A DNA stretch of 64,000 bases from a virus. Lineage: Duplodnaviria; Heunggongvirae; Uroviricota; Caudoviricetes. Below are positions 16,863-63,458 of this stretch, piece after piece. A program made the translations under genes and the position numbers. The notes beneath the pieces were generated by a model that made no database searches, was not told the origin of the DNA, and was given only the letters and a program-made list of their open reading frames with translations. The DNA is taken from positions 1 through 64,000 of the IMG/VR virus record IMGVR_UViG_2703718833_000007; one strand, 5' to 3'. Position 1 is the first letter of the stretch. Each line of letters starts with the position of its first letter.

Positions 16863-17121
16863 AACAACCACGCCACCGCCGCGCGGCTTTGCCCGTGCTG
16901 TATTCCTGGCTAACGACCGGGCCATCAATCGTGCTACGCTCAACCGCGTTTTACCGGACTGAAATTTACAAAATGGCGTCATTGCGTGATGTGGATCACA
17001 TAATGGCGCTTTTCACCTTGTTCTGACGTATCCGTTTTGTATACTTCAAACAAGCAAAATGCTCTTTAAAAATCCGGCAGCGCTGAAATGCGTAGAAATC
17101 ACCTGAAAAGGAGAGAGCATT

Positions 17122-17312: not shown

Positions 17313-17918
17313 ATGCAGAACCCTAAAAAACCCATAAGACGCCGTTGCAAATGCTGCGGCGTTTTTTTTGAACCTAAATATCACAATCAAACGTGGTGCA
17401 GCGATGAATGTCTGGAAGAACTGAAGTTTGATCAGCTATGCCGCGATCGTGAAAAGGCTATGAAGGCTATGGAGCGGAAGAAACGCCGCGATAGCCAGCG
17501 TGAGGAACGCAACCGGAAGCGGAAGCAGTTAAATCCGCGTAGTTATTGGTTAAAGCAGGCGCAAAACGTGTTTAACGCATATATTCGCGAACGTGACGCA
17601 GGACAGCCGTGTATATCTTGCGGGACTTATTATTATGAGCAATGCGGAGCAGATGCGGGGCATTACAGGACGGTAGCAGCAGCTGGACACCTTCGATTTA
17701 ACGAGGATAACGTAAACCTACAATGTCGACATTGCAATCAGGTATTAGACGGAAACATAGAGGCATATCGTCCGGCACTGATTCGAAAAATTGGCCTTGC
17801 CAGGGTGGAGGCGTTGGAGAACAACAACGAAACCCATAAATGGACGATCGAAGAATGCAAGGAGATCATTAAAGTTTACCAGGCGAAATTGGACGCCCTA
17901 AGGAGAAAGGCGGCATGA
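17313..17918 (+). CDS. ninG: NinG/Rap-family recombination-associated protein
   Basis: 201 aa; multiple Cys/His clusters; recalled similarity to lambda NinG; GGGGTGA RBS. Confidence 0.65.
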   Translation: MQNPKKPIRRRCKCCGVFFEPKYHNQTWCSDECLEELKFDQLCRDREKAMKAMERKKRRDSQREERNRKRKQLNPRSYWLKQAQNVFNAYIRERDAGQPCISCGTYYYEQCGADAGHYRTVAAAGHLRFNEDNVNLQCRHCNQVLDGNIEAYRPALIRKIGLARVEALENNNETHKWTIEECKEIIKVYQAKLDALRRKAA

Positions 17919-18322: not shown

Positions 18323-18501
18323 AAAACGAAGTTAAAGATCTGCAAATAGATATTCAGTGCGATGAGCATGATTTAGCTACAGTCAGAAAAATCCAGGCTT
18401 TTCATATGCGAGAATTGCTTGCATTGAAAGAGCTTGAGAGGAAGTTAGTCCAGTCTATTTCTGATCGTAAACGCCTTATTGCTCGTTACGGGGGCAAATA
18501 A
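18319..18501 (+). CDS. hypothetical protein (60 aa)
   Basis: Coupled ORF. Confidence 0.35.
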   Translation: MKNEVKDLQIDIQCDEHDLATVRKIQAFHMRELLALKELERKLVQSISDRKRLIARYGGK

Positions 18502-19223
18502 TGAATCTGGAGTCAATTCTTAAATTCCACTTCCCAAAATCACCGCATTTGTCAGATGAAAGTCGTGGCACGTCACCGGACGCGCTTAATACTACGGATG
18601 CGCTAACTGCCGCTGGTATGGCGCAATCGCGCGTAGAGCTTGGTTATAGCGCTTTTTTAGGGAAGATGGAACTATCACAAGCCGAAAAGCACAGGGCCGT
18701 AGTTTTGCTTACAGAGCGTTTAAGAGCTATGGCAAAAGATTATAAATACGTTATGGAACTGGACGAGGTGCGACGAAATGATCTCATTATTCTTGTTGCC
18801 GTTTTCGCATTTCGGGATTATTGCCAGAGTGCCGCGACGGAAAAAACTTGTATGGAGTGCGGCGGATATAAATTTACGTTTGACGAGTATGGGGAAAAAC
18901 ACCTTTGCAAAAAATGCAAGGGGCATGGGAAAGTTCTTAATCATTGCAAACAATGCAAGGGCCGTGGAGAAGTGCCTGATAAAGCAGCCAGCGAAGCGGC
19001 GGAAATGCCCGTGTTCAAAACGTGCCAGCATTGCGGCGGGCGCGGGTACTCGCGTTTCCCTGTAGATCTTGTCCGGCAGGCGGTTAATCAGCTTGTCTTT
19101 CCTGTAAGCCGATCAACATGGTGGAAGAAATACCGTGCTTTCTATGAAGACGCCATTGCTGAATTGTTCAAAGAAGAGGCGCGGGCTGATAACGAAATTA
19201 AACGAGTGACGCGGGGTGAATGA
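18501..19223 (+). CDS. DnaJ-type zinc-finger protein in late-antiterminator (Q) position
   Basis: 240 aa; four CxxCxGxG repeats; located after nin-like genes where lambdoid Q lies. Confidence 0.4.
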   Translation: MNLESILKFHFPKSPHLSDESRGTSPDALNTTDALTAAGMAQSRVELGYSAFLGKMELSQAEKHRAVVLLTERLRAMAKDYKYVMELDEVRRNDLIILVAVFAFRDYCQSAATEKTCMECGGYKFTFDEYGEKHLCKKCKGHGKVLNHCKQCKGRGEVPDKAASEAAEMPVFKTCQHCGGRGYSRFPVDLVRQAVNQLVFPVSRSTWWKKYRAFYEDAIAELFKEEARADNEIKRVTRGE

Positions 19224-19423
19224 TGGATAAGCTGGAAATAAACGATAAGTTTGCCGTTATCTTGTTCGAAGATAAAACGGGCGGTGCTTGGTGTAAGAAA
19301 GTTACTGGTGCTGAAGCGCGTTTAATATTGGGCATGGCAAGCGCATTAAACGAAGGTGAATTGCCAGCCGTGCCAGTTAAGCCAGTACATATTTACGGAC
19401 GGAGCAAAGACAATGAAGCCTAA
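19220..19423 (+). CDS. hypothetical protein (67 aa)
   Basis: ATGA overlap with upstream gene. Confidence 0.35.
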   Translation: MMDKLEINDKFAVILFEDKTGGAWCKKVTGAEARLILGMASALNEGELPAVPVKPVHIYGRSKDNEA

Positions 19424-19682
19424 ATTAAAAGAACATCTATTTGCAAAGCTGGTTAATGACCTGACGTTATCAGCGCGGTTGTGCGGTGATACGCAACAAT
19501 TGAGGGCATGGATAGCAAGGGATTTAAAAAAATATATTGAGCCTGGCGGGCCTGGTGACGAAATGACTATGGACAAGGCCATCAATCGCCGTTCGGCTGA
19601 ATGGTCAGTGAGTAACACCGGATTAACCGGATACATTGAAGGCTATAACGACTGTTTACAGGATCATAGCGATGGCAAATAA
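19413..19682 (+). CDS. hypothetical protein (89 aa)
   Basis: Start at ATG 19413 with GGAG RBS. Confidence 0.35.
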   Translation: MKPKLKEHLFAKLVNDLTLSARLCGDTQQLRAWIARDLKKYIEPGGPGDEMTMDKAINRRSAEWSVSNTGLTGYIEGYNDCLQDHSDGK

Positions 19683-19971
19683 ACACTTACATTTGAATTT
19701 AAAAGGAGAATACTTCCACGCTATCAGGGCGGGGAAGAAGGTCGAGGAATACCGGCTTTATAATGACTATTGGCGCAAACGCCTTGAGGGGCGCGACTAT
19801 ACAAGATTGATTCTTAAATGGGGATACCCTGCAAACGACGATAAGGAAAGAATCCTTGTTCTCCCTTACATGGGGTACAAGATAAAGACTATTCAGCATC
19901 CTTTGTTCGGTGATGAACCTGTTAAGGTTTTTGCTATCCACTGCGATATTTATTGGCAATATAGGTTTTAG
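19672..19971 (+). CDS. ASCH-domain-like protein
   Basis: IRAGKKVEEYR matches ASCH GxKxxExR-type motif; start ATG overlaps upstream stop. Confidence 0.45.
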   Translation: MANKHLHLNLKGEYFHAIRAGKKVEEYRLYNDYWRKRLEGRDYTRLILKWGYPANDDKERILVLPYMGYKIKTIQHPLFGDEPVKVFAIHCDIYWQYRF

Positions 19972-19974
19972 AAT

Positions 19975-20187
19975 ATGAAAAGTAACCGCAAGCGCCTTGT
20001 AAGGGCATACGACAAAGCATTAAAGGCTTTTGATGATCTGCGACGCAATAAGCGCCAGCGCCGTAAAGTTGCGCGCATGTTTGTAAGGTGGTTGCATAAT
20101 GAGGATTATTTCCTTAATGCTAGGCACATGACGCAGGATGTAGCAGACGCATTGGCTGACGAGAACGTTTATTATATGATGTGGTGA
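19975..20187 (+). CDS. hypothetical basic protein (70 aa)
   Basis: Operon-context ORF. Confidence 0.35.
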   Translation: MKSNRKRLVRAYDKALKAFDDLRRNKRQRRKVARMFVRWLHNEDYFLNARHMTQDVADALADENVYYMMW

Positions 20188-20191
20188 TAAT

Positions 20192-20557
20192 ATGCAAATA
20201 ATCATTGATTATCTTTGCCATGCTGCAAATACAATTTTTGGCATGTATCAACAACCATTCCTTCAGGAATGGGATGATATGCTAAACGACATCCTCGACA
20301 AAGGATTAATAATGGATGTTGACGAGCTTACAATCAGATTTAATTATGAGGGTGAAGAATATCTAATTTGGGTTGGTAATAGATGGTATTCATACGGTCA
20401 TATTTATTCAATTGGTGGTAAGTTCATTAAAAGAAACCAGGAATTTAGACCGCGCTTCCGCACAATGCGCCGCCTGCATGATCTGCATATGAAATTATTC
20501 GAAGATCAGGAAGCACGGGAATTATTCAAAATTTACGGGGATAAATCATGGAGCTAA
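20192..20557 (+). CDS. hypothetical protein (121 aa)
   Basis: Operon-context ORF. Confidence 0.4.
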   Translation: MQIIIDYLCHAANTIFGMYQQPFLQEWDDMLNDILDKGLIMDVDELTIRFNYEGEEYLIWVGNRWYSYGHIYSIGGKFIKRNQEFRPRFRTMRRLHDLHMKLFEDQEARELFKIYGDKSWS

Positions 20558-20778
20558 AAATCTGGCAGGCTATCGACGTGGTTGATAACGAATTATCTAT
20601 GTTTGCCACTGACGGGAAACGCGTGGTGATCGCTACATGGACACGCAACCACGATGATATTGCTTTTCGTCGCAAGGCGGCGGAATGGCTTTTCTCTGAT
20701 GGCGGCTACACGATGAACATCGCACAGCTTGCCAGAATGAAAGATGAAAAGCTGGTGGACAGCTACACAACTGCGTAA
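20548..20778 (+). CDS. hypothetical protein (76 aa)
   Basis: Operon-context ORF. Confidence 0.35.
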   Translation: MELKIWQAIDVVDNELSMFATDGKRVVIATWTRNHDDIAFRRKAAEWLFSDGGYTMNIAQLARMKDEKLVDSYTTA

Positions 20779-20788
20779 TGGGGTAAAT

Positions 20789-21019
20789 ATGCGTATCTAT
20801 GAGCACAAGCGGGATAAAACCCGCTTTTTTGTTCGTGCTGGCGTGGCGTACCAGTATCACGAATGCGGTTACATTGAGGCGCTTGCTTACGATCTGGACT
20901 TCGAGCAAGAAAAGGCATGGTTCGATTTTAAAATTTACCGTAAGCGCAAACCTACGCGCGACGAGCGCCACGCTATCCGGGACTTTTTAATCAGCATTGA
21001 GCGTTGGGAGTCAGATTAA
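20789..21019 (+). CDS. hypothetical protein (76 aa)
   Basis: Start at ATG 20789. Confidence 0.35.
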   Translation: MRIYEHKRDKTRFFVRAGVAYQYHECGYIEALAYDLDFEQEKAWFDFKIYRKRKPTRDERHAIRDFLISIERWESD

Positions 21020-21246
21020 TGAAAGTCAAATTCTTGCACGATCACGGTTATCCATCACTGAAACAGGTTGTTGGTAAGGTTGTTGATGTAGTTCATAGCG
21101 ATAATGTCACTTGCATGATTAACGGTGCTGACCTAATTGCCGCTGGCGCTGATGACCATTACATAAATCCGGCATGGTCGTATACGTTCAGCCTGGGCGA
21201 CTTCGTTGGCGACAAGGGGCGCGGGCTGGAAGTAGTCGAGGGTTAA
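21019..21246 (+). CDS. hypothetical protein (75 aa)
   Basis: TAATG overlap; GGGAG RBS. Confidence 0.35.
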   Translation: MKVKFLHDHGYPSLKQVVGKVVDVVHSDNVTCMINGADLIAAGADDHYINPAWSYTFSLGDFVGDKGRGLEVVEG

Positions 21247-21250
21247 CATC

Positions 21251-21499
21251 ATGGACGTTTACGAAGATCTATACCTCCAGACAGACACCAACACTTTTTA
21301 TTTTCTTAAAAACGGCGTCGTGTATCGCAGTGACGACGGGGTGATAATGAAAGAGTGGTTATTTAAGCGTGAAGACCTACTCGACGATCTGGTTTTTGCC
21401 GGGGTATTTCGTAAACGTCCGGCTAACATGAAAGAAGAGATGTTGATTGAGGTTATTAAAAATGAAAATCAGGGTAAGTTATTTCCGGGCGAAAGATAA
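21251..21499 (+). CDS. hypothetical protein (82 aa)
   Basis: Operon-context ORF. Confidence 0.35.
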   Translation: MDVYEDLYLQTDTNTFYFLKNGVVYRSDDGVIMKEWLFKREDLLDDLVFAGVFRKRPANMKEEMLIEVIKNENQGKLFPGER

Positions 21500-21713
21500 G
21501 GCAACAGGAAAGCAGGTGGCGATCCTGGTTAACGAGGCGCAGTACATGTTTGTCCTTCAACCGTGGTGTATAGCTGACTATAACGATGATTATCGCCGTC
21601 ACGCTGCGCGGAGTGCTGTAGGAATGAAAGGATGGCAGCCGCGCGACATGGAAAACTATTGTGATTGGAAATTGGTGGCAAAATACACGGTAGACTATAA
21701 AGGGGTTTTCTGA
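21462..21713 (+). CDS. hypothetical protein (83 aa)
   Basis: Start at ATG 21462 with GAGGT RBS; overlaps upstream ORF by 38 nt. Confidence 0.3.
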   Translation: MKIRVSYFRAKDKATGKQVAILVNEAQYMFVLQPWCIADYNDDYRRHAARSAVGMKGWQPRDMENYCDWKLVAKYTVDYKGVF

Positions 21714-21715
21714 TT

Positions 21716-21931
21716 ATGTTTGCAAGATGCGTTTACTCTGACACTGCGTGCTTTACTGTTGGTGAATTATATAGCGTTGATCTTCTTAACGGGTGCAAGC
21801 GCGGCGCTGGCGGCATTCATTATGTAAAGGATAATGATGGCGATGCGTGGCAAATTTACGGCGATCATGCAAAGTGGGCTGTTAAGGGAAGTTTTGACAA
21901 TCGCGTGATGGCGCGTTTTGTTAAGTGGTAA
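21716..21931 (+). CDS. hypothetical protein (71 aa)
   Basis: Operon-context ORF. Confidence 0.35.
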   Translation: MFARCVYSDTACFTVGELYSVDLLNGCKRGAGGIHYVKDNDGDAWQIYGDHAKWAVKGSFDNRVMARFVKW

Positions 21932-21977
21932 TGTCGTTTACATCAATAAATGTGATCTACCACGCAAAGTTTACGAA

Positions 21978-22343
21978 ATGGCATTGTTTCGGCAGTGCCA
22001 TTTTGTTATATATAAGCCACTGAAAGACGGATGGTGCAAAATCATGAAAAGCGACAAATTCATTGCGTGCTGTTTTGTTGAAGTGCCTAAAGGTGATTTT
22101 TTCTTCAATTATGAATTTAAAGATAGTTTAGGAAGATCTCATGTTGTCGCTGGTAAGCGTGGAGACTGGTTGTATATCACTGATGGGGACAGGATCTTCA
22201 CTAAAAACCAGTTATTCAGAATAAAGGCAGAAAATAATGAAATACCAGTAGGCAATATGGGGATTATGAATTATCACGCTGGTTTATCGTTAAAGCACGA
22301 TGCGGTAAATAAAGCGCGTAGCTTACCTGGTGCGGAGTTTTAA
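21978..22343 (+). CDS. hypothetical protein (start ambiguous: 21978 or 22044)
   Basis: Track ORF begins with non-ATG codon; first ATGs at 21978 and 22044. Confidence 0.3.
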   Translation: MALFRQCHFVIYKPLKDGWCKIMKSDKFIACCFVEVPKGDFFFNYEFKDSLGRSHVVAGKRGDWLYITDGDRIFTKNQLFRIKAENNEIPVGNMGIMNYHAGLSLKHDAVNKARSLPGAEF

Positions 22344-22345
22344 TT

Positions 22346-22600
22346 ATGGTTGTGATCAGACTATGGCGCGGCAATAGCCGATTTGATGGTGAGTACGTCC
22401 GCGTGATTGAAGATGTTAATCGTGGTCGGTTTTATGAATTGGTATACAGCGAAAAAAGGGAGAAAGAATATCTGAACGAATCGACCCCTATGTGGCGTAA
22501 AGTGGCTGGCCTTGCCTTAATTCTGCGCCGCGGGTTTTATACAGATCACAACACACTAACAGATGCGGAACTAGTGACAATTCTTTACAAAGGAGAATAA
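22346..22600 (+). CDS. hypothetical protein (84 aa)
   Basis: Operon-context ORF. Confidence 0.35.
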   Translation: MVVIRLWRGNSRFDGEYVRVIEDVNRGRFYELVYSEKREKEYLNESTPMWRKVAGLALILRRGFYTDHNTLTDAELVTILYKGE

Positions 22601-22603
22601 CAA

Positions 22604-22927
22604 ATGTCTAAATTTATCAGCGTTAATGTTTTCCGTGGCAATTTTCCAGAAGATAAAGAAATTGGACAATTCGCAGGTGAACGTGGCGTATGTTTCCGTG
22701 TAGCTACTGAAGACGATGCGCACGTTAAATGCTTTCACGTATCTGAACCGCCTTTTAATGCAGACCATCTTGAAGACCTGAATAGAATTAAAAGCCTTAT
22801 TTTTGCTTATCTGGCGTTCCCTGGTATTGGTGATACTGATGTCGAATTACTTGGCGCTGAACTGTTTGCGGAATACAAAATGACTGAAGGGGTAGAAGGG
22901 GGAATTGAAATTGAGCGCATCAAATAA
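22604..22927 (+). CDS. hypothetical protein (107 aa)
   Basis: Operon-context ORF. Confidence 0.4.
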   Translation: MSKFISVNVFRGNFPEDKEIGQFAGERGVCFRVATEDDAHVKCFHVSEPPFNADHLEDLNRIKSLIFAYLAFPGIGDTDVELLGAELFAEYKMTEGVEGGIEIERIK

Positions 22928-23162
22928 GCTGTATAAAGTCATGTGTAAAGGTGAATATCATGGCTTTACGGTTGGTTGCGAATACCTGGGCCACATTGGG
23001 TACGGCCCTTTCGGTGAACTGGGAATGAATACGATGGACGACGATGGAGACAGCAGGACGCTTGATCTTGATTCTGATGATTTCGAATACATCCCGCCGG
23101 TAACTTACCGCGACGTTGATGATTTCCTGGCTGAACATGAAGACGAGGACGATGATGATTGA
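22905..23162 (+). CDS. hypothetical protein with acidic C-terminal tail
   Basis: C-terminus EHEDEDDDD; start uncertain. Confidence 0.35.
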   Translation: MKLSASNKLYKVMCKGEYHGFTVGCEYLGHIGYGPFGELGMNTMDDDGDSRTLDLDSDDFEYIPPVTYRDVDDFLAEHEDEDDDD

Positions 23163-23352
23163 ATGCCTTATTGCTGTGATTGTTTTGCTTTATATCGCTG
23201 GCGCGATCCTGATGTCATGTTTTATTAAGGTTAGCGGCGCTGAACATGGTGGCCTTGAGATTCCCTTCTGGCCTGTATTGGTTTTTCTCGCTTTCTTTGA
23301 TGCTACGGTAGTGCAGATCAAGCGAGCCATTAAGGAGCGCAAGAATGATTGA
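23152..23352 (+). CDS. small membrane protein (two TM helices)
   Basis: Hydrophobic segments; start overlaps upstream stop. Confidence 0.35.
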   Translation: MMIECLIAVIVLLYIAGAILMSCFIKVSGAEHGGLEIPFWPVLVFLAFFDATVVQIKRAIKERKND

Positions 23353-23527
23353 AGATGGCATCTATGGTGTAAACCTTATTGAAAACGTATTTTACATGGT
23401 TGATGGCGATACCGTGACAATCAGCGTAAACGGTGGTGAATATGTAGAGCCATTCTTCAAAACAACAAAGGAAGACATTAAGCGAAGCGTTGATAAAGGC
23501 GTACTATTTAAGGTTGGCGAACTATGA
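23345..23527 (+). CDS. hypothetical protein (60 aa)
   Basis: Operon-context ORF. Confidence 0.35.
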   Translation: MIEDGIYGVNLIENVFYMVDGDTVTISVNGGEYVEPFFKTTKEDIKRSVDKGVLFKVGEL

Positions 23528-23700
23528 GCGAGATAGAAGACGGTATCTATTTTCACAAGGTATTTAACATCGTCTATTTACTTAGAGGTGAATCGGTGAT
23601 GATAAAACCTGATGATGATCCGCATTGGGAATCAAGCGACATGGATCGGTGGCATATGCAAACATTGCTAGATAATGGCCTGATATACAGAAAGCAGTAA
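23524..23700 (+). CDS. hypothetical protein (58 aa)
   Basis: ATGA overlap; below track cutoff. Confidence 0.3.
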   Translation: MSEIEDGIYFHKVFNIVYLLRGESVMIKPDDDPHWESSDMDRWHMQTLLDNGLIYRKQ

Positions 23701-23765
23701 AGCCGTATTTGTGGAGCGAAAACAAACAGATTAAAATATTCTCTAACAATGCGAAACTGTAACTA

Positions 23766-23787
23766 CCCGGCCCCGCGCCGGGTTTTT
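23766..23787 (+). terminator. rho-independent terminator immediately upstream of lysis cassette (tR-prime-like)
   Basis: CCCGGC-CCCGC-GCCGGG hairpin followed by TTTTT, about 20 nt before holin RBS. Confidence 0.5.
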
Positions 23788-23807
23788 GCTTTGTTGGAGG
23801 TAAATCT

Positions 23808-24008
23808 ATGTTCGAAAGAATACGGGAGGCGTGTGCGTATGTGGCTGGTGCAGTAACCGCTTTTTTCGGCGCGATAACCATCAATGACGTTGCCGTCTTT
23901 GTGGGTATCTTATCAACCATTGGCACATTTGCCGTTAACTATTACTTCAAATCACAGGAGAACAAGAGGGCGCAAGAGGAACACGACGCACGAATGGGGA
24001 ATAAGTAA
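23808..24008 (+). CDS. pinholin (phage 21 S-like class II holin)
   Basis: 66 aa, two TM helices, charged C-terminus; precedes SAR endolysin; GGAGG RBS. Confidence 0.65.
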   Translation: MFERIREACAYVAGAVTAFFGAITINDVAVFVGILSTIGTFAVNYYFKSQENKRAQEEHDARMGNK

Positions 24009-24009
24009 C

Positions 24010-24501
24010 ATGATTAGCCAATCGCTGAAAAACCGACTAACTAAGGCGGCGGCTGGTGGAACGTTAGCCATTGCATCTGTTTTGCTTGTATGGGTTGAGG
24101 GTACGGCTTACGAGCCTTATTACGATACCGGAGGCGTGCTAACTGTATGCAATGGCATAACCGGCCATGATGTTGTCCCTGGTAAGAGATATACACCGGA
24201 TGAATGCGAGAGACTTTTGCAAAAGCATTTAACCGTTCACAAAAAGGCGGTTGATCGTTATGTAAAAGTTGACATGAATGATTATCAACGCGCAGCGCTA
24301 ATTAGCTTTTCATACAATATCGGGGTTGACGCTTTCAAAAAATCAACCTTGTTAAAAAAAATAAACAAAGGCGACTTTAAGGGAGCGTGTAAGGAGATGG
24401 ATCGCTGGGTGTATGACAATGGGAGATATATACAAGGCTTAAAGAATCGTCGCGATATTGAACGTGCTATATGTGAATGGGGCGTAACCAATGGAAAGTG
24501 A
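24010..24501 (+). CDS. SAR endolysin (GH24 phage lysozyme with N-terminal signal-anchor-release helix)
   Basis: 163 aa from ATG 24010; weakly hydrophobic Gly/Ala-rich N-terminal helix; lysozyme motifs recalled as similar to phage 21 R. Confidence 0.8.
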   Translation: MISQSLKNRLTKAAAGGTLAIASVLLVWVEGTAYEPYYDTGGVLTVCNGITGHDVVPGKRYTPDECERLLQKHLTVHKKAVDRYVKVDMNDYQRAALISFSYNIGVDAFKKSTLLKKINKGDFKGACKEMDRWVYDNGRYIQGLKNRRDIERAICEWGVTNGK

Positions 24502-25012
24502 TGATGAACTAAAACGAAAGCTACACTACGATCCAGCGACAGGTATTTTCACCTATAAGATTAGTCCTCACGGGAGAATCAAGGCCGGAAGCGTAGCCGG
24601 GTGTAAGCATAAAAGCGGATACATACACATAGGAAGATATAAAGCGCATCGCCTTGCGTGGTTTTTCCATTATGGAGTGTGGCCCGAAAAGGACATTGAC
24701 CATATTAATGGAATAAAAACCGACAACAGGATAGTAAACCTGCGAGAAACAGATGATGCGCATAACTGCAGAAACAAGAAACATATTGCCACTCACACAT
24801 TGTCTGCATTCAGGGGTGTTAGCTACCACAAAACAGAGAGAAGCAAGCCTAAATGGCGAGTAAGAATTACCGACAATGAAGGTAAGCGTATATCTATTGG
24901 TTTATTTGACTCACTAGACGAAGCGATCGCCGCTCGCATTTTGGCGGAAAACTTTTTCTATGGTGAATATGCACCTTCGATGGGTTGCGAGGGTGAAACA
25001 TGGACAAGGTGA
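24491..25012 (+). CDS. HNH endonuclease with AP2 domain, copy 3 (divergent), inserted between endolysin and Rz
   Basis: IDHINGIKTDNRIVNL HNH_3 motif and AP2-like RGV...W segment. Confidence 0.7.
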   Translation: MESDDELKRKLHYDPATGIFTYKISPHGRIKAGSVAGCKHKSGYIHIGRYKAHRLAWFFHYGVWPEKDIDHINGIKTDNRIVNLRETDDAHNCRNKKHIATHTLSAFRGVSYHKTERSKPKWRVRITDNEGKRISIGLFDSLDEAIAARILAENFFYGEYAPSMGCEGETWTR

Positions 25013-55131: not shown

Positions 55132-56505
55132 GTGACCGCTTTTTCTACCCTGAATGTTTTGCCTCCCGCCCAACTCACGAACCTTAATGAGTTGGGTTAT
55201 TTAACCATGACGCCGGTGCAGGCCGCCGCGCTTCCGGCGATCCTTGCCGGAAAAGATGTTCGCGTGCAGGCGAAAACCGGCAGCGGCAAAACGGCGGCTT
55301 TTGGCCTCGGCTTGTTACAGCAAATTGATGCGTCGCTATTTCAAACCCAGGCTTTAGTGCTGTGTCCTACGCGTGAACTGGCGGATCAGGTGGCAGGTGA
55401 ATTGCGTCGGCTGGCGCGTTTTCTGCCAAATACCAAAATTTTGACGTTGTGCGGTGGTCAACCGTTCGGTATGCAGCGTGATTCGTTGCAACATGCGCCG
55501 CATATTATCGTGGCAACGCCGGGGCGTTTGCTGGATCACCTGCAAAAAGGCACGGTATCACTGGATGCGTTGAATACGCTGGTGATGGATGAGGCCGACC
55601 GCATGCTGGATATGGGATTTAGCGATGCCATTGATGATGTCATCCGTTTTGCGCCTGCATCTCGACAGACGCTTCTGTTTTCGGCAACCTGGCCGGAAGC
55701 CATCGCTGCAATCAGCGGACGAGTGCAACGCGATCCTTTGGCGATTGAAATTGACTCAACAGATGCTTTGCCACCCATTGAACAACAATTTTATGAGACA
55801 TCCAGCAAAGGCAAAATTCCTCTGTTGCAACGGTTATTAAGCTTGCATCAGCCATCCTCTTGCGTGGTGTTTTGCAATACCAAAAAAGATTGCCAGGCTG
55901 TCTGCGACGCGCTGAATGAAGTAGGGCAAAGTGCATTGTCATTACACGGCGATTTGGAGCAACGCGATCGCGATCAGACCCTGGTACGTTTTGCTAACGG
56001 TAGCGCCCGTGTACTGGTCGCGACTGATGTTGCTGCGCGTGGTCTGGATATTAAATCGCTTGAGCTGGTGGTGAACTTTGAGCTGGCGTGGGACCCTGAA
56101 GTTCATGTACATCGCATCGGTCGTACAGCTCGTGCAGGAAATAGCGGTCTGGCGATCAGTTTCTGTGCTCCGGAAGAAGCACAGCGGGCCAATATCATTT
56201 CTGACATGTTGCAGATAAAACTTAACTGGCAAACGCCGCCAGCTAATAGTTCCATTGCGACGCTGGAAGCAGAAATGGCAACGTTGTGTATCGATGGCGG
56301 GAAAAAAGCCAAAATGCGCCCGGGTGATGTATTAGGTGCACTGACAGGAGATATCGGGCTTGATGGCGCAGATATTGGCAAAATCGCCGTGCATCCGGCG
56401 CATGTCTATGTCGCGGTCCGTCAGGCTGTTGCTCATAAAGCATGGAAACAGTTACAGGGCGGGAAGATTAAAGGAAAAACGTGCCGGGTGCGGTTATTAA
56501 AATAA
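55132..56505 (+). CDS. dbpA: ATP-dependent RNA helicase DbpA
   Basis: 457 aa; DEAD-box motifs (GSGKT, DEAD, SAT, HRIGRTAR) and C-terminal RNA-binding domain; GTG start. Confidence 0.9.
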   Translation: MTAFSTLNVLPPAQLTNLNELGYLTMTPVQAAALPAILAGKDVRVQAKTGSGKTAAFGLGLLQQIDASLFQTQALVLCPTRELADQVAGELRRLARFLPNTKILTLCGGQPFGMQRDSLQHAPHIIVATPGRLLDHLQKGTVSLDALNTLVMDEADRMLDMGFSDAIDDVIRFAPASRQTLLFSATWPEAIAAISGRVQRDPLAIEIDSTDALPPIEQQFYETSSKGKIPLLQRLLSLHQPSSCVVFCNTKKDCQAVCDALNEVGQSALSLHGDLEQRDRDQTLVRFANGSARVLVATDVAARGLDIKSLELVVNFELAWDPEVHVHRIGRTARAGNSGLAISFCAPEEAQRANIISDMLQIKLNWQTPPANSSIATLEAEMATLCIDGGKKAKMRPGDVLGALTGDIGLDGADIGKIAVHPAHVYVAVRQAVAHKAWKQLQGGKIKGKTCRVRLLK

Positions 56506-56633
56506 TGAAATGTTGAATTGCCGGGTGCAAGAGTAAACATCTTATTCGGGATTGCCGGATGCGACGCTGGCCGCGTCTTATCCGGCCTCCATAAGAGTAG
56601 CCCGATACGCTTGCGCATCGGGCGCTATCCTGG

Positions 56634-57569
56634 TTATTTCACTTCAACCACATTCAGCCGTAACTCATCCAACTGATTTTCATCTTCTTCTGGCTGCCAG
56701 CACGCCGGTTGTAGTGGGATCTCTTCGCGATCAAACGCCAGATCACCCCCGTTAACCACTTCAGAACCGTGGGTGATGCCTTTGAAATCGAACAGGTTGG
56801 TATCGCACAGATGCGACGGCACCACATTCTGCATCGCGCTGAACATCGTCTCGATACGCCCTGGATAACGTTTATCCCAGTCACGCAACATGTCAGCAAT
56901 CACCTGACGTTGCAGGTTAGGCTGTGAACCGCACAGGTTGCACGGAATAATCGGGAACGCTTTTGCATCGGCAAATCGCTGAATATCTTTCTCGCGGCAG
57001 TAGGCCAGCGGACGAATAACGATATGTTTGCCATCATCGCTCATCAGTTTCGGAGGCATACCTTTCATCTTACCGCCGTAGAACATATTTAAGAACAACG
57101 TTTGCAGGATATCGTCACGATGGTGACCCAACGCGATCTTCGTCGCCCCCAGTTCCGTTGCGGTACGATAAAGGATACCGCGACGAAGGCGAGAACACAG
57201 TGAGCAAGTGGTTTTGCCCTCTGGAATCTTCTCTTTCACGATACCGTAAGTATTCTCTTCAACAATCTTGTACTCAACGCCCAGCTTTTCAAGATACTCG
57301 GGCAGAACGTGTTCCGGGAAGCCCGGTTGCTTTTGATCGAGGTTAACAGCCACCAGCGAAAAATTGATTGGCGCGCTTTGCTGCAAATTGCGCAGAATCT
57401 CCAGCATGGTATAGCTGTCTTTACCCCCGGAGAGGCAAACCATGATGCGATCGCCTTCTTCAATCATATTGAAGTCAGCAATGGCTTCGCCCACGTTACG
57501 ACGCAGACGTTTTTGTAATTTGTTCAGATTGTATTGTTCTTTCTTTGTAATTTGTTGATTTTCTTGCAT
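56634..57569 (-). CDS. ttcA: tRNA 2-thiocytidine biosynthesis protein TtcA
   Basis: 311 aa; PP-loop SGGKDS motif and Cys clusters. Confidence 0.9.
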
Positions 57570-57620
57570 TATTTCAGTTCTCTGGTACTAAATGGGGCAA
57601 ATTGGGGGCAAACTTTGCAA

Positions 57621-58856
57621 CTACGATAACCGCGCATTCAACATGGCTATCTGTTCGTCGTTCATGTCATCAATCCACATACCGTAAATTTCATACACCA
57701 TCTGCGCAGTTTCATGCCCCATTTGGCTGGCTATAAATGCCGGGTTCGCTCCTGCCGTCAACAGCCAGCAGGCAAAAGTATGCCGCGTATGGTACGGATT
57801 ACGGCGGCGAATACCAGCACGTTTTACTGCTGCATTCCACCTTGCCCCCAAACTGCTTACCGAGTAATAAGGTTTTTGTTTTCCGTTACACACCCTGGGC
57901 ATGAAAACAAAATGCAGTTTTTGCTTTTCGGTTCTGCCGTACTCCCGATGATAAAAGGTGATTTCGCTTTTGCGATGATGCCCGGTCAGTTTGTATTGCT
58001 CCTTCAGTGCTTCAAGAGCAGGCTGCAGTAGTGTTACTGTTCGGATCCCGGCATTTGTTTTTGGGGGACCGAACATATCAAGTATCGTCAGGTTTCTTCT
58101 GACATTCACTATTCCCTTTTCGAGATCCACATCCTCCCACGCCAGAGCTGCCAGTTCCCCGTGACGAAGTCCTGAGTAAACGGCAAATTTCCACAAGTTC
58201 TGGCTCTGTCCTTTTTCACTTTCCATTAATGCATTGAATTCTGTTTTAGATAACGGATCAGGCTTTATTCTGTTTCGCTGTAATTTTTTTACTCCTTCAA
58301 ATGGTTTGGTTGATATAAATCCCGACTGATACGCAAAACGCAACAGCGAACAGAGCAGGGCGATATAGTTATCAACTGTGCGCACGGTTCTTCCTTTTTT
58401 GTTGGATCTTGGATTATCCAGGTAAAGCGTTTCTCCATGCAGCAGTTCATTCCGGTAGTTTAAGATATCGCTATAACGAATATGTGATATCGGGGTACTT
58501 TCACAAATTATTATTCTGAGTGTTTTTAATTGTGATTTTGTTTTCTTCATTGTGTATGTTGTTAACTCTGTCTCTTTAATTTTTGTCCAGATATCACAAA
58601 GCTCTCCGAACGTTTTTATGACTCTCGTTGTCACCATTTTTGCCCCAGTGCTGGACTGGGGAAAACGTCTTAAATACTCAAATTCACCGGAGTTTATTTC
58701 ATGAACTATCAGCGCTCTTAAATTTCCGGCCTTTTTAATATTACTGTTTGTAATCTCCCAGCCTTTTAATGTTTCCCGACATCGTTTTCCTCGAAACATG
58801 AACCAGATGCGAATGTATCTACCTCTAATCTCGACACCTGTTGGTAATTTAGACAT
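57621..58856 (-). CDS. intR: Rac prophage tyrosine integrase
   Basis: 411 aa; tyrosine recombinase C-terminal motifs (R...HxxR...Y). Confidence 0.9.
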   Translation of the reverse strand: MSKLPTGVEIRGRYIRIWFMFRGKRCRETLKGWEITNSNIKKAGNLRALIVHEINSGEFEYLRRFPQSSTGAKMVTTRVIKTFGELCDIWTKIKETELTTYTMKKTKSQLKTLRIIICESTPISHIRYSDILNYRNELLHGETLYLDNPRSNKKGRTVRTVDNYIALLCSLLRFAYQSGFISTKPFEGVKKLQRNRIKPDPLSKTEFNALMESEKGQSQNLWKFAVYSGLRHGELAALAWEDVDLEKGIVNVRRNLTILDMFGPPKTNAGIRTVTLLQPALEALKEQYKLTGHHRKSEITFYHREYGRTEKQKLHFVFMPRVCNGKQKPYYSVSSLGARWNAAVKRAGIRRRNPYHTRHTFACWLLTAGANPAFIASQMGHETAQMVYEIYGMWIDDMNDEQIAMLNARLS

Positions 58857-58857
58857 A

Positions 58858-59073
58858 TCATGAGTCTTTGATAAACTGATTTATCTTTGGATAGTTGTAC
58901 CAGATAATCCCTCGTTTGCTGTCTGGCTTACCTAAAGGAGATACTCGTTTGAAGTGGAAGCCCTCCACCCAACAGTTCTGGCGGTATGCTTCAATTTGTC
59001 TGGCCCCCAGACCAGTGCGAAGCATCAGGCCGTATTCAACCATCCACTCTTCATTAAAGATTACTTGTGCCAT
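58858..59073 (-). CDS. xisR: Rac excisionase
   Basis: 71 aa from internal Met [10 protein letters not shown]; directly upstream of intR. Confidence 0.75.
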
Positions 59074-59151
59074 CGCATCACCTCTGGCAGGCGCCAATGT
59101 TAGACTGAAATTGACGCCCGATGTTGATTATTAATAATAAGCTATGAAGTT

Positions 59152-59361
59152 TTAATTTGAATACAATGCAATTCTCGAGGACTGAAGTTTCTCGCAATTA
59201 AAATTTATCAGTTTTACTTTCTGCTCTCTGGAAACGCCTGCTTCTTTTTTACCTGAGAGCATTTTTTCGCATTCTGATTTCGTTAGTTTAGATTTTGAAT
59301 ATCTTGTCCAGTTAGTAGGAGTGCCACCTTCCTTTTCAATAGTGGCGGTAATTTTATACAT
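59152..59361 (-). CDS. rcbA: Rac small protein RcbA-like
   Basis: Track ORF 93 aa; likely 69 aa from MYKITATIEK; assignment from recalled Rac gene order. Confidence 0.5.
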   Translation of the reverse strand: MYKITATIEKEGGTPTNWTRYSKSKLTKSECEKMLSGKKEAGVSREQKVKLINFNCEKLQSSRIALYSN

Positions 59362-59548
59362 GAACACCTCCATTATTATTTCCAGTGGTTCGTTTATTCC
59401 ATCTTTCGAGTGCTTCTTTTTCACCTCCACCATAACCGGTTCGGGATTCGCATCCGTTACACTTCGCTCGGTAATATCCTGAAATGGCTTTCACCGTTAC
59501 TGATGGACAACCACAAAATGGACATGGTTTAACATTGTCATATCTCAT
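59354..59548 (-). CDS. ralR: RalR / Lar (restriction alleviation protein; type I toxin)
   Basis: 64 aa from MRYDNVKPCPFCGC; CxxC...CxxC zinc-ribbon. Confidence 0.7.
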   Translation of the reverse strand: MRYDNVKPCPFCGCPSVTVKAISGYYRAKCNGCESRTGYGGGEKEALERWNKRTTGNNNGGVHV

Positions 59549-59604
59549 AATTTTTCTCATAAAAAATATTTCAAGTTGGCGGTGCATTACACCGCCAGGC
59601 TGAA

Positions 59605-60414
59605 TTATTCCTCTGAATTATCGATTACACTGTATTCCCCGGTTAATACAGAGGAATCTGCAGGATCGATTGTCAGTGGTTCCTTTTCATCCATTGATAC
59701 TGCACGCTGGATCTCAATTGATACGGGCAGATATTTGAACAGGCGACGAATAGCCGTTTTCTTTGCCATTTCTTCCCAGTGAGTTACCCACGGCCCGTTA
59801 TTACCAGCTTTACTCAGGCTGCGCACCAGCTCAATCTGTTTGCGCGTCATAACTTCAAACTGAGTACCTCCGTCTTTCAGTCTTGCGACAGCATAGACGT
59901 GGGTAACCGGGGCATCTTCGTTTTCTCCCGGGCGGTGTATTAACTTTTCATCAAGGCCAAATTCGAAGCTAAACTCGTCACCTTCACGGACAACACGGGC
60001 TGACAGGCTGGCGATTTGACCAGAACGGCGAGCCAGATCAATCATGCCGCGATAGCCAATGATTAGCTGAACGTTCTTTTTACCGCTCTTTTCGTTTTTA
60101 TTACCAAAAGGCAGTAAATATGCATGACCGAGGGCGCTACCTGGCTCAAGTCCGAGCTGTGAACACTGTACGATCGCACTGACAAAACTCATAGTGTCAC
60201 AGTTTCCTAACGCCGGAACTTTACGAATTTCTGTGGTGGCGATACGGATCATACGTTCAGCCGTCATATGGCGTGGAAGAGCTGCTGCCAGTTGCTCTTT
60301 CATTGATGGCTGGTTAATAAAACTAATCACGTCGCTATTTTTAACTGCTGCTGGTGCACGGTTTCCCTGAGTTTTTTGCAGATCGGTTTTTGCGATTGGT
60401 GGTTGCTTAGTCAT
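59605..60414 (-). CDS. recT: RecT single-strand annealing protein
   Basis: 269 aa from MTKQPPIAK; start overlaps recE stop. Confidence 0.9.
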
Positions 60415-63007
60415 TTGCATATTCCTTAGCCCAGCGGGGCAGTGATAATGTCTTAATAGCTGGCCATTCATCGGTATTCAGGCAGTCAGACAGGGTTCGC
60501 AGATTGCGGTGATATTCCTGTTGACCTGCCAGTTTTGCTTCTTCGCCCATCATGAAAATTTCAACCGGATAACGTCCGCATTCAATAGTTGTGCTGGCAA
60601 CCAGAAAAACGAAAGTTGGCTGCACTCCAAACTGTGCTTCATAACCGTCACTGTAGAATGCATCCTGAACGTGATAGCGGTAGTCGTAATAAGCGGTTTT
60701 GAATCGTTGAATATCCGCCGTAGTTTTCACGTCCATGATCCAGTGAAATTCAGGGATAATTTTGTCCGGACGGCACCGACACAAAATTCCTGTTTCAGGA
60801 TCTTCCCAGTAAATTGATGATTCAGCGTGTCCGGCGCTTTCAACAAGCCATTGCCCCAGCGGCAAAGCCATAACGCTTTGATACATGAGTTCAATTTTCC
60901 GGCCTTCTTCCGCAGTGATAACCGTTTTTCCTGTGCTTGCGCATTCCATCAGAAACGCTTTCTCTTCTTCTTTTCCGGCGTTTGTACGGCGGTTAAATTC
61001 AGGTGCTACGATAAAGCGGTTACTGAATTCCTCCGGTTCAAGTACCCGGCAGTGGAAAGCGGTTCCTAAATCGAGCGTTTTTGTCTTTGTGGTGTCCACG
61101 GGGGCATTTTTACGCCACAAATATAGTGCCGGAGTATCAGCAATGTCATCGAGCTGAGACTTACTGACACCGGGACCCGCGTGGTAATTCTCATTCGAAA
61201 TTCCGTAATAAATACCTGGCTCTATGTCTTCTACGATTACGGGATCTGCGACTTCGCCAGTTTCATCACTGCAATCGCGATGCGGATCGCTGCCAGCATT
61301 CTCATTGTGCGGATGTTCAGCGCCTTCCATTTCCTCCGGATCATTTTCCTTAGCTTCAACCTGACTCTCTTCATCGAATGTTTCCTGGTATGTTGCGTCG
61401 CCCATCACCGCACCACAGTCAGGGCAGTTATCCCCGCCAGTCTGGCCGCAGGCATTGCAGGCTATTTCCGGTTCCTGTTGCACTACTGGCTCAGGTTGAT
61501 TCATATCCGGGCTGGTTTTTTCCGTTTCTGGCTGGTTCTGGTACACACAATCGCGAGTCTGGATCCCCTTTACCCATTTCGGATCGTTCGGGTCGCTAAT
61601 TCCGTCAACAAATTCACCACGTGATGCAGCAAGCAATTTATCGGCATCGACAGGATTTTTTGATGGAATGTTTTTCCGGGCTTCATGGAGTTCTGCCCGC
61701 AGTTCCTGATATTTCGCATCAACAGAATTTACCTGTGACTGAGCATCCAGCGGCTGCGTGTCCTGATGATGTTCAGTTGCGTCCGGTTCCATTGTTTCAG
61801 CCTCTCCCTGTTCAACTGCCGTTGTTCCAGATGGTTGCGGTTTTTCTTCATCATCCTGTTTTCCTTCTTCTGTTACTCGCTGCGGCATCGGGGCAGAGGA
61901 GCGACCGCAGGCAATATCCACGATTTCCGGATCAGGGTTGGCATGATCGGTTTCAGTCAGTACTTTGTTCAGATATTCAGTGACGTGCGCGGGGATGACC
62001 TCGATCCCAATTGGTGCTTCTTTTACGGACGCAACCACGATGGCGCGGGAATAATCCAGCCCGCCAGGCATGGTGATGAATTTGTCGCGGAAAACAGAAA
62101 AGGGCGGTTTATTTTCAGCGATAATTTCCTCAATGCGTTTAGCGTGTGCCGGATGAAGGTTATAGATGTCCAGATCCATTGAACGGGCCAGTACGCCAGT
62201 GGCTACGTCGCGCGCCAGTGACGTCAGATCGTGTACGAAACCTTCGCCGCGATCGGTGAGGTTTCCGCCGCCAGCATTAGCACCGGAAGCCGTGCGAGTG
62301 ATGTGTGAAACACGATTACCCTTCATCCACTCTTTTGTCAGCAGTCCTCGATCGGTGTAGTCAGCGTTCAGGTATGCTTCGAAAAAAGCAGTTATCAGTC
62401 CCAGGTTTGAATTACCAGGATTAGGGAAAACTTTGTCAGTGTCACGAACCAGTTTGTGGAGTTCGCGAATTTCCAGCGGGTCGAGCAGGCTGGTTTTGTG
62501 GGAAACAGCCAGGGCAGTAACAGCCGGTAGTTCTTCAGCCCGAGCAATGTGTAATGCCTGGAGTCCGTCGCGTGAAACGTGCGTTACCGGTTTTTCGCTG
62601 CCGTGTTGAGCAAGCCAACGAATGGGCAGTTCCTGGCCAGAAATTGGGAGTAGCATATTCTCCTCAATCTCAGTCATGTCTTCGCCGTTGACGTTGGTAT
62701 TGCCTTGATAGTGAGCGTTGTCTGGTGCTGCTCCCGGTTTTAGTTCCCATGTCATGGAGTCTTTGCTGAGTTGATAGCGTTCACTCCAGGTAAAATCGAT
62801 CTCACCTTCAGCGGGCAGGTCATTAACGACAGGAAAATTCGTGGCAACAGCTTTAAAATAGCTGCTCAGTTTTTTACCTGACTTAACGATCAGGTAGTCC
62901 AGAGTGGCACAGGTCGATTCAAAATCGTTGCTTGCCCACAGGACGACGTCAGGTTCACCGGATGATTTTTTCGCTTTCCGTAACAGGAAGAGTGGTTTTG
63001 TGCTCAT
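60407..63007 (-). CDS. recE: RecE exonuclease VIII
   Basis: 866 aa; followed by recT. Confidence 0.9.
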
Positions 63008-63108
63008 TGTTTTTTAACCTCAACTCAGATTAAAATTCGTTTTGTTCAGTGAATGATCTTGCCGGATACACACTGTTCATAGCCTGCGCCATACGCAGGC
63101 TATTTCTT

Positions 63109-63384
63109 TCAGATTTCACCTTTTAATTTCATTGCAATTAGAGTTGCCAGAAATTCGGCTTTTTTTTCTGCGGGCAGATTCTTTCCGATATGCACCAGGC
63201 ACATTTTTTTGACACCTTCATCAAGTGTTTTTACGTTGCCTGATGGACCATCGATATCAACCACAGTGAATGGGGTTTCTTTATTTTCTGTTTTAATTAC
63301 GTAGCCAATGCGCTTTCCTTCCAGATTCACCTCGTGAACAATGTCATCGGTAGTTACAACAGTGGCTTCATAATTGGTAATCAT
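63109..63384 (-). CDS. racC: RacC
   Basis: 91 aa from MITNYEATVV. Confidence 0.7.
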   Translation of the reverse strand: MITNYEATVVTTDDIVHEVNLEGKRIGYVIKTENKETPFTVVDIDGPSGNVKTLDEGVKKMCLVHIGKNLPAEKKAEFLATLIAMKLKGEI

Positions 63385-63458
63385 GTTTTTCTCCTTAATT
63401 AAGGTTGAGCGAATACCTGCCATTTCTGGCATAAATTCAGTTTCGAATAGTCAATTAA

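Follow-up and report, generated by a model that had tools for sequence, protein, structure and literature searches.

This report concerns a block of small genes located between the antiterminator gene Q and the lysis genes in a 64,000-nt stretch of viral DNA (positions 1 to 64,000 of the IMG/VR record IMGVR_UViG_2703718833_000007, Caudoviricetes), to which we refer as the window. From position 19220 to 23700 the window contains 18 open reading frames (ORFs), designated here as o1 to o18, which are all on the plus strand, encode products of 58-121 aa, and make about 97% of the interval coding. The location of such a block between Q and the lysis genes, proposed in a preliminary description made from the sequence of this DNA alone, could be confirmed. 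The gene preceding the block (18501..19223, plus strand) encodes a 240 aa antiterminator of the lambda Q family (PF03589, E 8.2e-29), which in tblastn comparisons is 34.5% identical to lambda Q (99% coverage, E 2e-32), 33.6% identical to gp23 of P22, and 30.8% identical to Q of phi80. Further upstream are ninG, rusA, and a 60-aa ORF (orf60). The block is followed by the holin gene (23808..24008, plus strand; PF16080, E 8.9e-15), which is the first gene of the lysis cassette and, presumably, also of the late operon, and by the genes of lysozyme and Rz/Rz1.

The DNA that carries the block is an Escherichia coli prophage of the mEp-immI group. This group, which includes mEp021, mEp554, and their relatives, was described in 2025 by Negrete-Mendez et al. 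as Nus-dependent non-lambdoid temperate coliphages (PMC11893012). The gene order ninG-rusA-Q-core-holin-lysozyme-Rz is common to the prophage and the group and indicates its membership. The left end of the window comprises phage replication and nin genes, while positions 56000-64000 represent the E. coli chromosome (99.9% identity) with ttcA, dbpA, and Rac genes; integration of mEp-immI phages near ydaM/abgT/mppA in the E. coli chromosome has been reported (PMC11893012), and the genes of this right flank belong to that chromosomal neighbourhood. A megablast search with the block as a query matched only seven phage records, namely mEp554, mEp044, MagusPhagus, mEp010, mEp013, mEp515, and mEp021, with a coverage of 41-86% and an identity of 84-92%. 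Among 5426 complete E. coli genomes, 35 contained matches of 84-92% identity. None of the matches in phages or E. coli was full-length; the best one covered 92% of the block at 87% identity, or 86% at 89% identity. A homologous region is thus present in the seven mEp-immI phages (gp38-gp45 in the case of mEp021) and in about 35 E. coli prophages, which share with the window not only the flanks and o6-o10 but also an o18-type gene at the end of the array and the regulatory module described below. In the published description of the group, the genes of the array are given as hypothetical, and the array itself, its core and variable structure, the overlap alleles, and the late promoter were not analysed (PMC11893012).

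The starts of the ORFs were chosen with the use of Shine-Dalgarno (SD) motifs, alignments to PHROG profiles, and annotation in relatives, which in the case of o7, o12, o15, and o16 gave positions 20789, 22044, 22911 (TTG), and 23152, respectively. A purine-rich SD-like motif is present 3-12 nt upstream of all 18 starts. In a codon comparison with homologues in 13 relatives, the pooled ratio of nonsynonymous to synonymous substitution rates (dN/dS) was 0.06-0.45, which indicates purifying selection on each of the 18 genes (reference values: 0.12 for Q and 0.07 for the holin gene). Matches in PHROG were found for 16 of the 18 ORFs, every matched family being of unknown function. These features, together with the detection by mass spectrometry (MS) of gp41, the mEp021 homologue of o9, allow us to consider all 18 ORFs genuinely protein-coding. 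The ORFs had been described as almost all joined by overlapping stop and start codons. Their tight packing is evident, but the extent of overlap was overstated: the 17 internal junctions comprise nine overlaps (1-38 nt), seven spacers of 2-10 nt, and one gap of 112 nt (21932-22043), which is the sole real intergenic gap of the block and contains a strong hairpin.

Comparison of the block with related loci indicates that only a part of it is constant. Our set of relatives consisted of 13 annotated Q-to-holin intervals (L001-L013) and 46 IMG/VR contigs found with o10; 56 of the relative loci contain both Q and holin genes and are the denominator of all presence counts given here. Across relatives, Q is 82-97% identical and holin 57-97% identical. 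The distance from Q to holin ranges in the 56 loci from 2007 to 6805 nt (median 5470). Genes o6 to o10 (20548-21713) are present in 56/56 loci, and the remaining 13 ORFs in 25 to 54 of them, the lowest counts being those of o11 (25), o13 (34), o17 (38), o12 (40), and o3 (42); for every ORF of the block, homologues are thus present in no fewer than 25 relatives. According to a pan-gene analysis that was crude, the genes of this interval form about 50 families, with between 8 and 27 genes in each genome; the 57 genomes compared show 48 distinct gene orders. In mEp021 and mEp515, which are without o1-o5 and o14-o17, Q adjoins o6 directly, and the swap is exact at the stop/start junction. The array is a universal five-gene core between two hypervariable stretches, one from Q to o6 and the other from o10 to holin. 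The view of the whole block as an accessory region therefore holds only in part: its length, content, and order vary widely, but o6-o10 are universal, and o9 is a homologue of a virion-associated mEp021 core protein. A comparison of presence and absence of individual ORFs, suggested in the preliminary description as a check, showed that the block is not conserved intact in these relatives; translation signals are present at all its ORFs, and no known roles of them emerged from our searches. The particular combination of cassettes found in the window was not seen in the other genomes compared.

Certain relatives provide additional observations on how the array changes. A distant metagenomic relative (L015), the holin of which is 52% identical, keeps an o5-like gene, o6, o7, o8, an o9-like gene, and o10. 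Between its o10 and the pre-holin module, at positions 1358-1560 of that locus, a decayed sequence of the o15 acidic tail and of the o16 N-terminus can be recognized, a remnant that marks the loss of a cassette. Two other relatives, both E. coli prophages, have an extra 228-nt ORF (WP_071834126.1) between the last o18-type gene and the pre-holin module (L007 6587-6814; L009 7556-7783). As this ORF adjoins the module, cassettes can insert up to the module boundary.

The genes ninG, rusA, orf60, Q, and o1 are joined by overlaps of 1-4 nt (the Q stop codon overlaps the o1 start in the sequence ATGA), and promoter-like sites in the region do not exceed the chance level (14 found vs. 20 expected), which would place the block in one operon with Q. 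The best sigma70-like match (TTTGCA-16-TATAAT, 10/12) is antisense, from 20198 to 20171 at the o4/o5 junction, and directed towards Q. This match was set aside: although most of it is conserved, the coding sequences of o4 and o5 account for that conservation, and it varies at synonymous sites. Upstream of ninF/ninG, a candidate nutR2 site (17060..17092, plus strand) was identified by eye. In this site, the boxA consensus TGCTCTTTA precedes a small hairpin, the loop of which contains GAAA, and nutR2 of mEp021 has been described at the matching position (PMC11893012). Judging by this arrangement, positions 17060-17092 are likely the site at which the N-like antiterminator of the group is loaded, and this protein would then allow transcription to proceed across Q and the block. 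With its small co-oriented ORFs, which overlap or abut each other and are contiguous with ninG-rusA-Q, and with the boxA-like site at 17060, the block has the traits of a nin-like array.

Hairpins resembling intrinsic terminators occur within this operon. One of them is inside o7 (20807..20832, plus strand), where the stem-loop AAGCGGG-ATAAAA-CCCGCTT (20807-20826) is followed by six T residues (delta G -16.5 kcal/mol, z -3.6). It was recovered in 56/56 relatives: the stem is unchanged in 54 of them, in one it contains a change to a G-U pair (AAGTGGG), and in mEp010 it contains a compensatory G to C and C to G double change, which is synonymous in both positions. In the mEp554 and mEp515 genomes this hairpin is annotated as a predicted terminator. 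The hairpin in the gap preceding o12 (21973..22006, plus strand) has a 15-bp stem followed by a U-rich sequence (delta G -19.9 kcal/mol, z -5.9); none of 200 shuffled sequences was as stable. Its role may be that of an internal terminator, or it may affect RNA stability. In the window and L001-L013, o12 is always preceded by one of two unrelated hairpins, either ATGGCAYTG...CAGTGCCAT or GGGGCC-GGAT-GGCCCC, the latter with a T-rich tract on the opposite strand. A further terminator-like hairpin followed by eight T residues is present within ninG (17343-17361, plus strand) and is a predicted terminator in mEp554, mEp013, and mEp515. The hairpins of ninG and o7 suggest the presence of several intragenic terminators along the early right operon.

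The 107-nt spacer between o18 and the holin gene (23701..23807, plus strand) contains a candidate late promoter (pR') together with a pause element and a terminator. A -35-like sequence TTGTGG (23709-23714) is separated by a 17-nt spacer from the -10 sequence TAAAAT (23732-23737), which is followed, after a 7-nt gap, by the -10-like sequence AACAAT (23745-23750) and GCG. Further downstream, a hairpin ACCCGGC-CCCGC-GCCGGGT (23765-23783; delta G -17.2 kcal/mol) with a T-run precedes the holin SD. The hairpin is annotated as TERM_5 in mEp021 and may be the terminator 't5' that is reported as experimentally verified. The module, of about 105 nt, is conserved in the 13 annotated relatives whatever gene precedes it: in most of them it is an o18-type gene, but two have the 228-nt ORF at this place, and UMNK88 has yet another gene. 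It is kept even in L015, despite the divergence of the L015 holin. The pattern TA[AG]A[AT]T-N6-7-AAC[AG][AC]T occurs 5' of the holin gene in 56/56 relatives, and its form TAAAWT-N6-7-AACRAT only once in the 64-kb window, at 23732-23750; as the pattern was written after the comparison, this count is not an unbiased test. BLAST comparison of the 117-nt module with all phages gave matches only within this group and provided no support from outside it. A promoter-like site inside o18 (23649-23676) was rejected as pR', since it is absent where another gene precedes the module.

The layout of the module is the same as that of pR' of lambda (TTGACT, 17 nt, TAAATT, 6 nt, AACGAT-GGG), of the annotated pR' of phi80 (TAGATT, 7 nt, AACGCT-GGG, and a terminator located about 50 nt downstream), and of the corresponding region of Salmonella phage SI5. 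In lambda, the -10-like AACGAT sequence causes the sigma70-dependent pause during which Q is loaded. What the module has in common with lambda and phi80 is a -10 sequence, the AAC(A/G)(A/C)T element 6-7 nt downstream of it, a G-rich triplet, and an intrinsic terminator, and the Q proteins are homologous; an element for Q binding was not recognizable in the module. By sequence only, it is a promoter with a pause-type element and a terminator located 5' of the lysis genes. We infer that it is a candidate late promoter from which the late operon would start at about position 23745, i.e., 3' of the block, and such a start would leave the 18 ORFs in the delayed-early operon together with Q.

The reading which we consider the best, with a probability of about 0.68, is that o1-o18 form a mosaic array of small genes that extends the delayed-early right operon (ninG-rusA-orf60-Q) past Q, and thus a nin-like array placed between Q and its site of action. 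The block would be transcribed from an early promoter, and an N-like antiterminator loaded at nutR2 would carry transcription through the hairpin terminators of o7 and of the region preceding o12, and translation would be coupled where genes overlap or nearly abut. The late operon would begin only at the pR'-like promoter, pause, and terminator module (23709-23790), immediately 5' of holin, and with such a late start the array would be expressed together with Q and would not be under its control. The products of the variable genes would most likely be dispensable and either modulate the physiology of the host or of nucleic acids or counteract defence; among them, o3 may be an ASCH-type binder of RNA or nucleotides, and o16 a small membrane protein. 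Several points weigh against this reading. The assignment of the promoter rests on sequence resemblance, its -35 sequence is weak and variable (TTGTGG, TTGTAG, or TCGCGC), and the predicted leader is only about 45 nt long, as compared to the 194-nt 6S RNA of lambda. The module is 4.5 kb from Q, while in lambda and phi80 the corresponding distance is 45-60 nt, and pR' of the known lambda-type phages is within about 60 nt of the Q stop codon. A gene of a virion-associated protein (o9) is unusual in an early operon. Finally, the part of the reading that concerns modulators or counter-defence is only a prior, because no ORF except o3 has a functional assignment.

An alternative explanation is that the array is a part of a Q-dependent late operon, with the promoter and qut either within the 3'-terminal part of Q or where Q meets o1, and with the pre-holin module acting as a mere internal terminator that is read through by the Q-modified polymerase. 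Such a layout would agree with that of lambda, phi80, and SI5, in which the late promoter directly follows Q, and the presence of o9/gp41 in virions fits late expression. However, there is no intergenic space after Q, since whichever gene follows it starts within a stop/start overlap (ATGA or TAATG), and no promoter-like site was found just after Q. The pause-type motif, on the other hand, occurs in the window only at 23732-23750, in a module that has its own -10 and AACAAT sequences and is kept in all 56 relatives. We therefore regard the late-operon explanation as quite improbable. It is very improbable that the genes of the array are morons, i.e., lysogenic conversion genes with promoters of their own that are expressed from the prophage. 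They are indeed accessory genes in a prophage, and a gap bounded by a hairpin is located 5' of o12, but promoter-like sites are not in excess, the overlaps of 1-38 nt and spacers of 2-10 nt leave, except for that one gap, no room for promoters, and the GC content of the block is near that of the rest of the phage. The combination of an own promoter and a terminator, expected of morons, was not found, o12 being the only gene with a hairpin-bearing gap upstream.

What the variable genes do is a question on which the searches provide little guidance. Scans of the ORFs against Pfam and NCBIfam gave nothing significant except a sub-threshold match of o3 to ASCH. PADLOC gave no match for the 10 of 18 ORFs tested (o2, o3, o5, o7, o9, o10, and o12-o15), searches of PDB sequences with o3, o5, o9, o10, o12, o14, and o15 gave nothing below E 0.2, and no ORF matched a known takeover, defence, or anti-defence family in Pfam, NCBIfam, or PHROG, or, for the 10 ORFs tested, in PADLOC. 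Rfam and tRNA scans of the 16-27 kb region were negative, with one match to CRISPR-DR15 (E 0.53) that was taken as a chance one. A host-takeover role, suggested in the preliminary description, is plausible. The array could alternatively be a counter-defence arsenal of anti-restriction or anti-abortive-infection genes, the hypervariability of which would result from an arms race with host defence. Small early genes, presence/absence variation, ORFans, and acidic proteins are typical of anti-defence loci. The array shares with them the small early genes, extreme variation in presence and absence, and lineage-restricted ORFans, as well as an acidic protein with an acidic tail (o15), and the dN/dS values of o14, o16, and o17 are higher. 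Most of its genes are, though, under purifying and not diversifying selection, and no match to an anti-defence protein was found in Pfam, NCBIfam, the PHROG-annotated families, or PDB, which are general libraries, none of them dedicated to such proteins. This explanation appears to us possible yet doubtful. A more elaborate conjecture, which we think unlikely, is that the interval between Q and pR' serves as a recombination-prone early cargo bay for counter-defence or takeover genes around the five-gene core, insulated from late transcription, and that the o9/gp41 protein is packaged, delivered with the DNA, and acts before phage genes are expressed.

Within the core, o9 (21251..21499, plus strand; 82 aa) deserves separate attention. 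Its product is 96% identical to gp41 of mEp021, which was detected by MS in CsCl-purified virions, was named a virion structural protein, and, according to the same report, is conserved throughout the mEp-immI group, i.e., in 48 of 48 genomes (PMC11893012). The o9 family is a lineage-restricted ORFan: its 50 clusters are all from E. coli and confined to prophages, and an exhaustive search with a profile hidden Markov model (HMM) found only three representatives among 1.84 billion proteins. The AlphaFold2 (AF2) model of o9, with a predicted local distance difference test (pLDDT) score of 64, is rich in beta structure in its first 55 or so residues and ends in a tail of low confidence, and a structure search with it returned no fold match. 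The resemblance of gp41 to RegA/YorC, suggested previously (PMC11893012), is unsupported here, given the low confidence of the o9 model and the negative fold search.

The 38-nt overlap of o9 with o10 (21462..21713, plus strand), described previously as a sign of either a misassigned start or a frameshift, is present as described. The overlap takes up the last 12 codons of o9. In the window and the 13 annotated relatives, the o9 stop codon, the o10 ATG at 21462, and the GAGGT SD 8 nt upstream of it are invariant, and only three of the 38 overlap positions vary, a near-invariance that is as dual coding predicts. The alternative o10 start at 21516 is not conserved, being GTG, ATG, or ATT among genomes, and phrog_38609 matches o10 in full length from the ATG at 21462; gp42 of mEp021 is the same ORF annotated from a later start. 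Results of the survey of the 56 relatives indicate two types of junction. Type A, that of the window, with the 38-nt overlap and an o9 of 82 aa, was found in 35 genomes. Type B, with a 4-nt ATGA overlap and an o9 of 70-71 aa ending in ...EVLK, was counted in 10 genomes, and a further 10, miscalled by the survey script because of non-ATG 'starts', have junctions that look like type B, which gives a total of about 20. The types differ by small indels beside an A-run, and the extra 12 residues of o9 in type A are in the low-confidence tail of the model. The 38-nt overlap is genuine and heritable, one of two natural junction alleles and not an error, so that neither a misassigned start nor a frameshift holds for this DNA as it stands, while in the evolutionary sense the suspicion has some merit, since a second, ATGA allele exists. 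Most probably, o10 is translated from its own SD and ATG, inside a C-terminal tail of o9 that would be dispensable. We give almost no credence to the possibility that o9 and o10 are halves of one protein, made by programmed frameshifting or split by an assembly error, although the overlap itself and the AAAAA run just 5' of the o10 ATG might suggest it. As o10 is in the +1 frame relative to o9, inspection of the overlap revealed no slippery heptamer (X-XXY-YYZ), and o10 has its own SD and ATG, programmed -1 frameshifting is excluded. Moreover, the same arrangement is present in 35 independently sequenced genomes, the other allele keeps the two ORFs apart by a normal ATGA stop/start, and it is the 82-aa form that corresponds to the annotated, MS-detected gp41.

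The only product of the array with a functional prediction is that of o3 (19672..19971, plus strand; 99 aa; phrog_625; 42/56 relatives), the ASCH-like protein of the preliminary description, for which our results provide further support. Its match to the Pfam ASCH family (PF04266) is below the cut-off (16.3 vs. 21.2 bits; E 0.016) and is limited to the N-terminal 25 residues. The GxKxxExR sequence, which is the ASCH motif of the alpha1-beta2 region (PMC6803910), is represented in o3 by G21-K23-E26-R28; in a set of 36 homologues, K23, E26, and R28 do not vary, and 31 members of the set also have the G. In the AF2 model (pLDDT 91.6) the motif is located between the helix 12-19 and the strand 25-29. 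The 12 best PDB matches of this model in Foldseek are all ASCH proteins (among them 2z0t, 3iuw, ZmASCH 5y6b/5gus, 1xne, and 2dp9), with scores that are weak (E 0.05-0.5, template modelling score about 0.5), and ASCH proteins were also on top in a profile search against PDB (E about 0.2). We predict that o3 is a protein of ASCH (PUA-like) fold that binds RNA or nucleotides. Its family is widespread in metagenomes.

The likeness of the array to known systems helps to define what is new in it. The nin region of lambda (ninA-ninI, between P and Q) consists of small, mostly dispensable, packed delayed-early ORFs with overlapping stop and start codons; its interspersed intrinsic terminators need N-type antitermination, and it is mosaic among relatives. 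The array is also small, packed, mosaic, and interspersed with hairpins, and homologues of ninF, ninG, and rusA are just upstream of it. In contrast to the nin region, which is upstream of Q, it is located between Q and the presumed pR', and none of its 18 proteins matched a lambda Nin protein family in Pfam-type family scans. In Stx phages, such as 933W, tRNA genes, stx, and other genes are located between Q and the lysis genes, and this cargo, 3' of pR'/tR', is expressed late in a Q-dependent manner. The variable accessory insertion between Q and holin is a common feature of these phages and of the window, but here the pR'-like module is 3' of the cargo, directly before holin, and there are no tRNA or toxin genes. 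Both the cassettes of the array and the phage group are known, and what is new is the way in which the cassettes are combined; as a feature, the array is of a familiar, nin-like kind.

As it stands, the array exemplifies phage mosaicism in a well-behaved form. A single slot of 2-7 kb is the place of about 50 gene families, which illustrates how small accessory genes are kept and rearranged in a recently described group of temperate coliphages prevalent in the gut, and the map of this slot provides for the mEp-immI phages a five-gene core, candidate internal terminators, and a candidate late promoter/qut module that is parted from Q by cargo. What seems worth keeping is the core and variable map, the two o9/o10 alleles, the internal hairpins, and the putative separation of Q from its promoter. 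If it is true that the variable genes encode counter-defence factors, the slot would be a compact source of new ones.

The remaining genes of the array, all on the plus strand, are as follows. The stretch between Q and the core starts with o1 (19220..19423; 67 aa; phrog_35000; dN/dS 0.09; 50/56 relatives) and o2 (19413..19682; 89 aa; phrog_29262; GGAG SD; dN/dS 0.21; 48/56). In the prophages L007 and L009, o1 and o2 are fused into a single ORF of 153 aa (WP_224154175.1; 1501-1962 in both loci); this may point to a joint action of the two products, or to a frameshift mutation as the origin of the fused ORF. Downstream of o3 are o4 (19975..20187; 70 aa; 51/56), which encodes a basic protein (isoelectric point, pI, 10.3) matching the C-terminal half of the phrog_8758 profile, and o5 (20192..20557; 121 aa; phrog_16975; dN/dS 0.10), which is a near-core gene (54/56). 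In the universal core, o6 (20548..20778; 76 aa; phrog_38280) is a homologue of mEp021 gp38, and o8 (21019..21246; 75 aa; phrog_5009; dN/dS 0.07) of gp40. The most conserved gene of the whole array is o7 (20789..21019; 76 aa; phrog_30442; dN/dS 0.06), with an identity of 92-99%; its start at 20789 is supported by the phrog_30442 alignment, which begins at residue 16 of the longer ORF. The product of o10 has 83 aa and is 87-95% identical among relatives.

In the stretch between the core and holin, the most variable gene is o11 (21716..21931; 71 aa; phrog_31142; 25/56). It is followed by o12 (22044..22343; 99 aa; 40/56), a homologue of mEp021 gp43, longer readings of which (121 or 141 aa) are not supported, as every relative examined has an annotated ORF of 300 nt at this place and the sequence upstream of it shows no conservation of coding. 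Next are o13 (22346..22600; 84 aa; phrog_32200; 34/56) and o14 (22604..22927; 107 aa; phrog_23107; 51/56), which encodes an acidic protein (pI 4.7) and has the highest dN/dS in the array (0.45). The acidic-tailed and the two-transmembrane proteins noticed in the preliminary description are indeed encoded here. The former is the product of o15 (22911..23162; 83 aa; pI 4.1; 47/56), to which phrog_25234 aligns from the TTG start, and which ends in the acidic C-terminal tail EHEDEDDDD; its family occurs only in E. coli prophages (57 clusters, each named 'hypothetical'). The latter, a predicted small membrane protein, is encoded by o16 (23152..23352; 66 aa; phrog_10061; 48/56), with two hydrophobic 19-mers (Kyte-Doolittle values of 19-residue windows: 2.76 and 1.68).

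The last two genes, o17 (23345..23527; 60 aa; 38/56) and o18 (23524..23700; 58 aa), both matching phrog_15318, are tandem paralogues of one small acidic family (direct BLASTP E 1.8e-4). Iterated HMM searches revealed that in the window and in 13/13 annotated relatives the array ends with one to three tandem copies of this family, and a gene of the family adjoins the pre-holin module directly in these relatives, except in LP26, 2017C, and UMNK88. The first, single-linkage clustering had also joined o11 with o17/o18, and o3 with o4, into families. The iterated HMM searches and direct BLAST exposed these groups as artefacts of chaining or ORF calling, and only o17 and o18 stay as paralogues.

Two observations concern the flanking genes. 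The Q protein contains four CxxC-type motifs, and its match to the DnaJ CXXCXGXG zinc finger is sub-threshold (26.7 vs. 32.7 bits of the cut-off). On the other side of the block, an ORF of 173 aa between the lysozyme gene and Rz (24491-25012, plus strand) has an HNH_3 domain (E 5e-14) together with a weak match to AP2, as is usual for homing endonucleases. As the lysozyme gene overlaps Rz directly in 13/13 annotated relatives, this ORF is an insertion specific to the prophage studied here.

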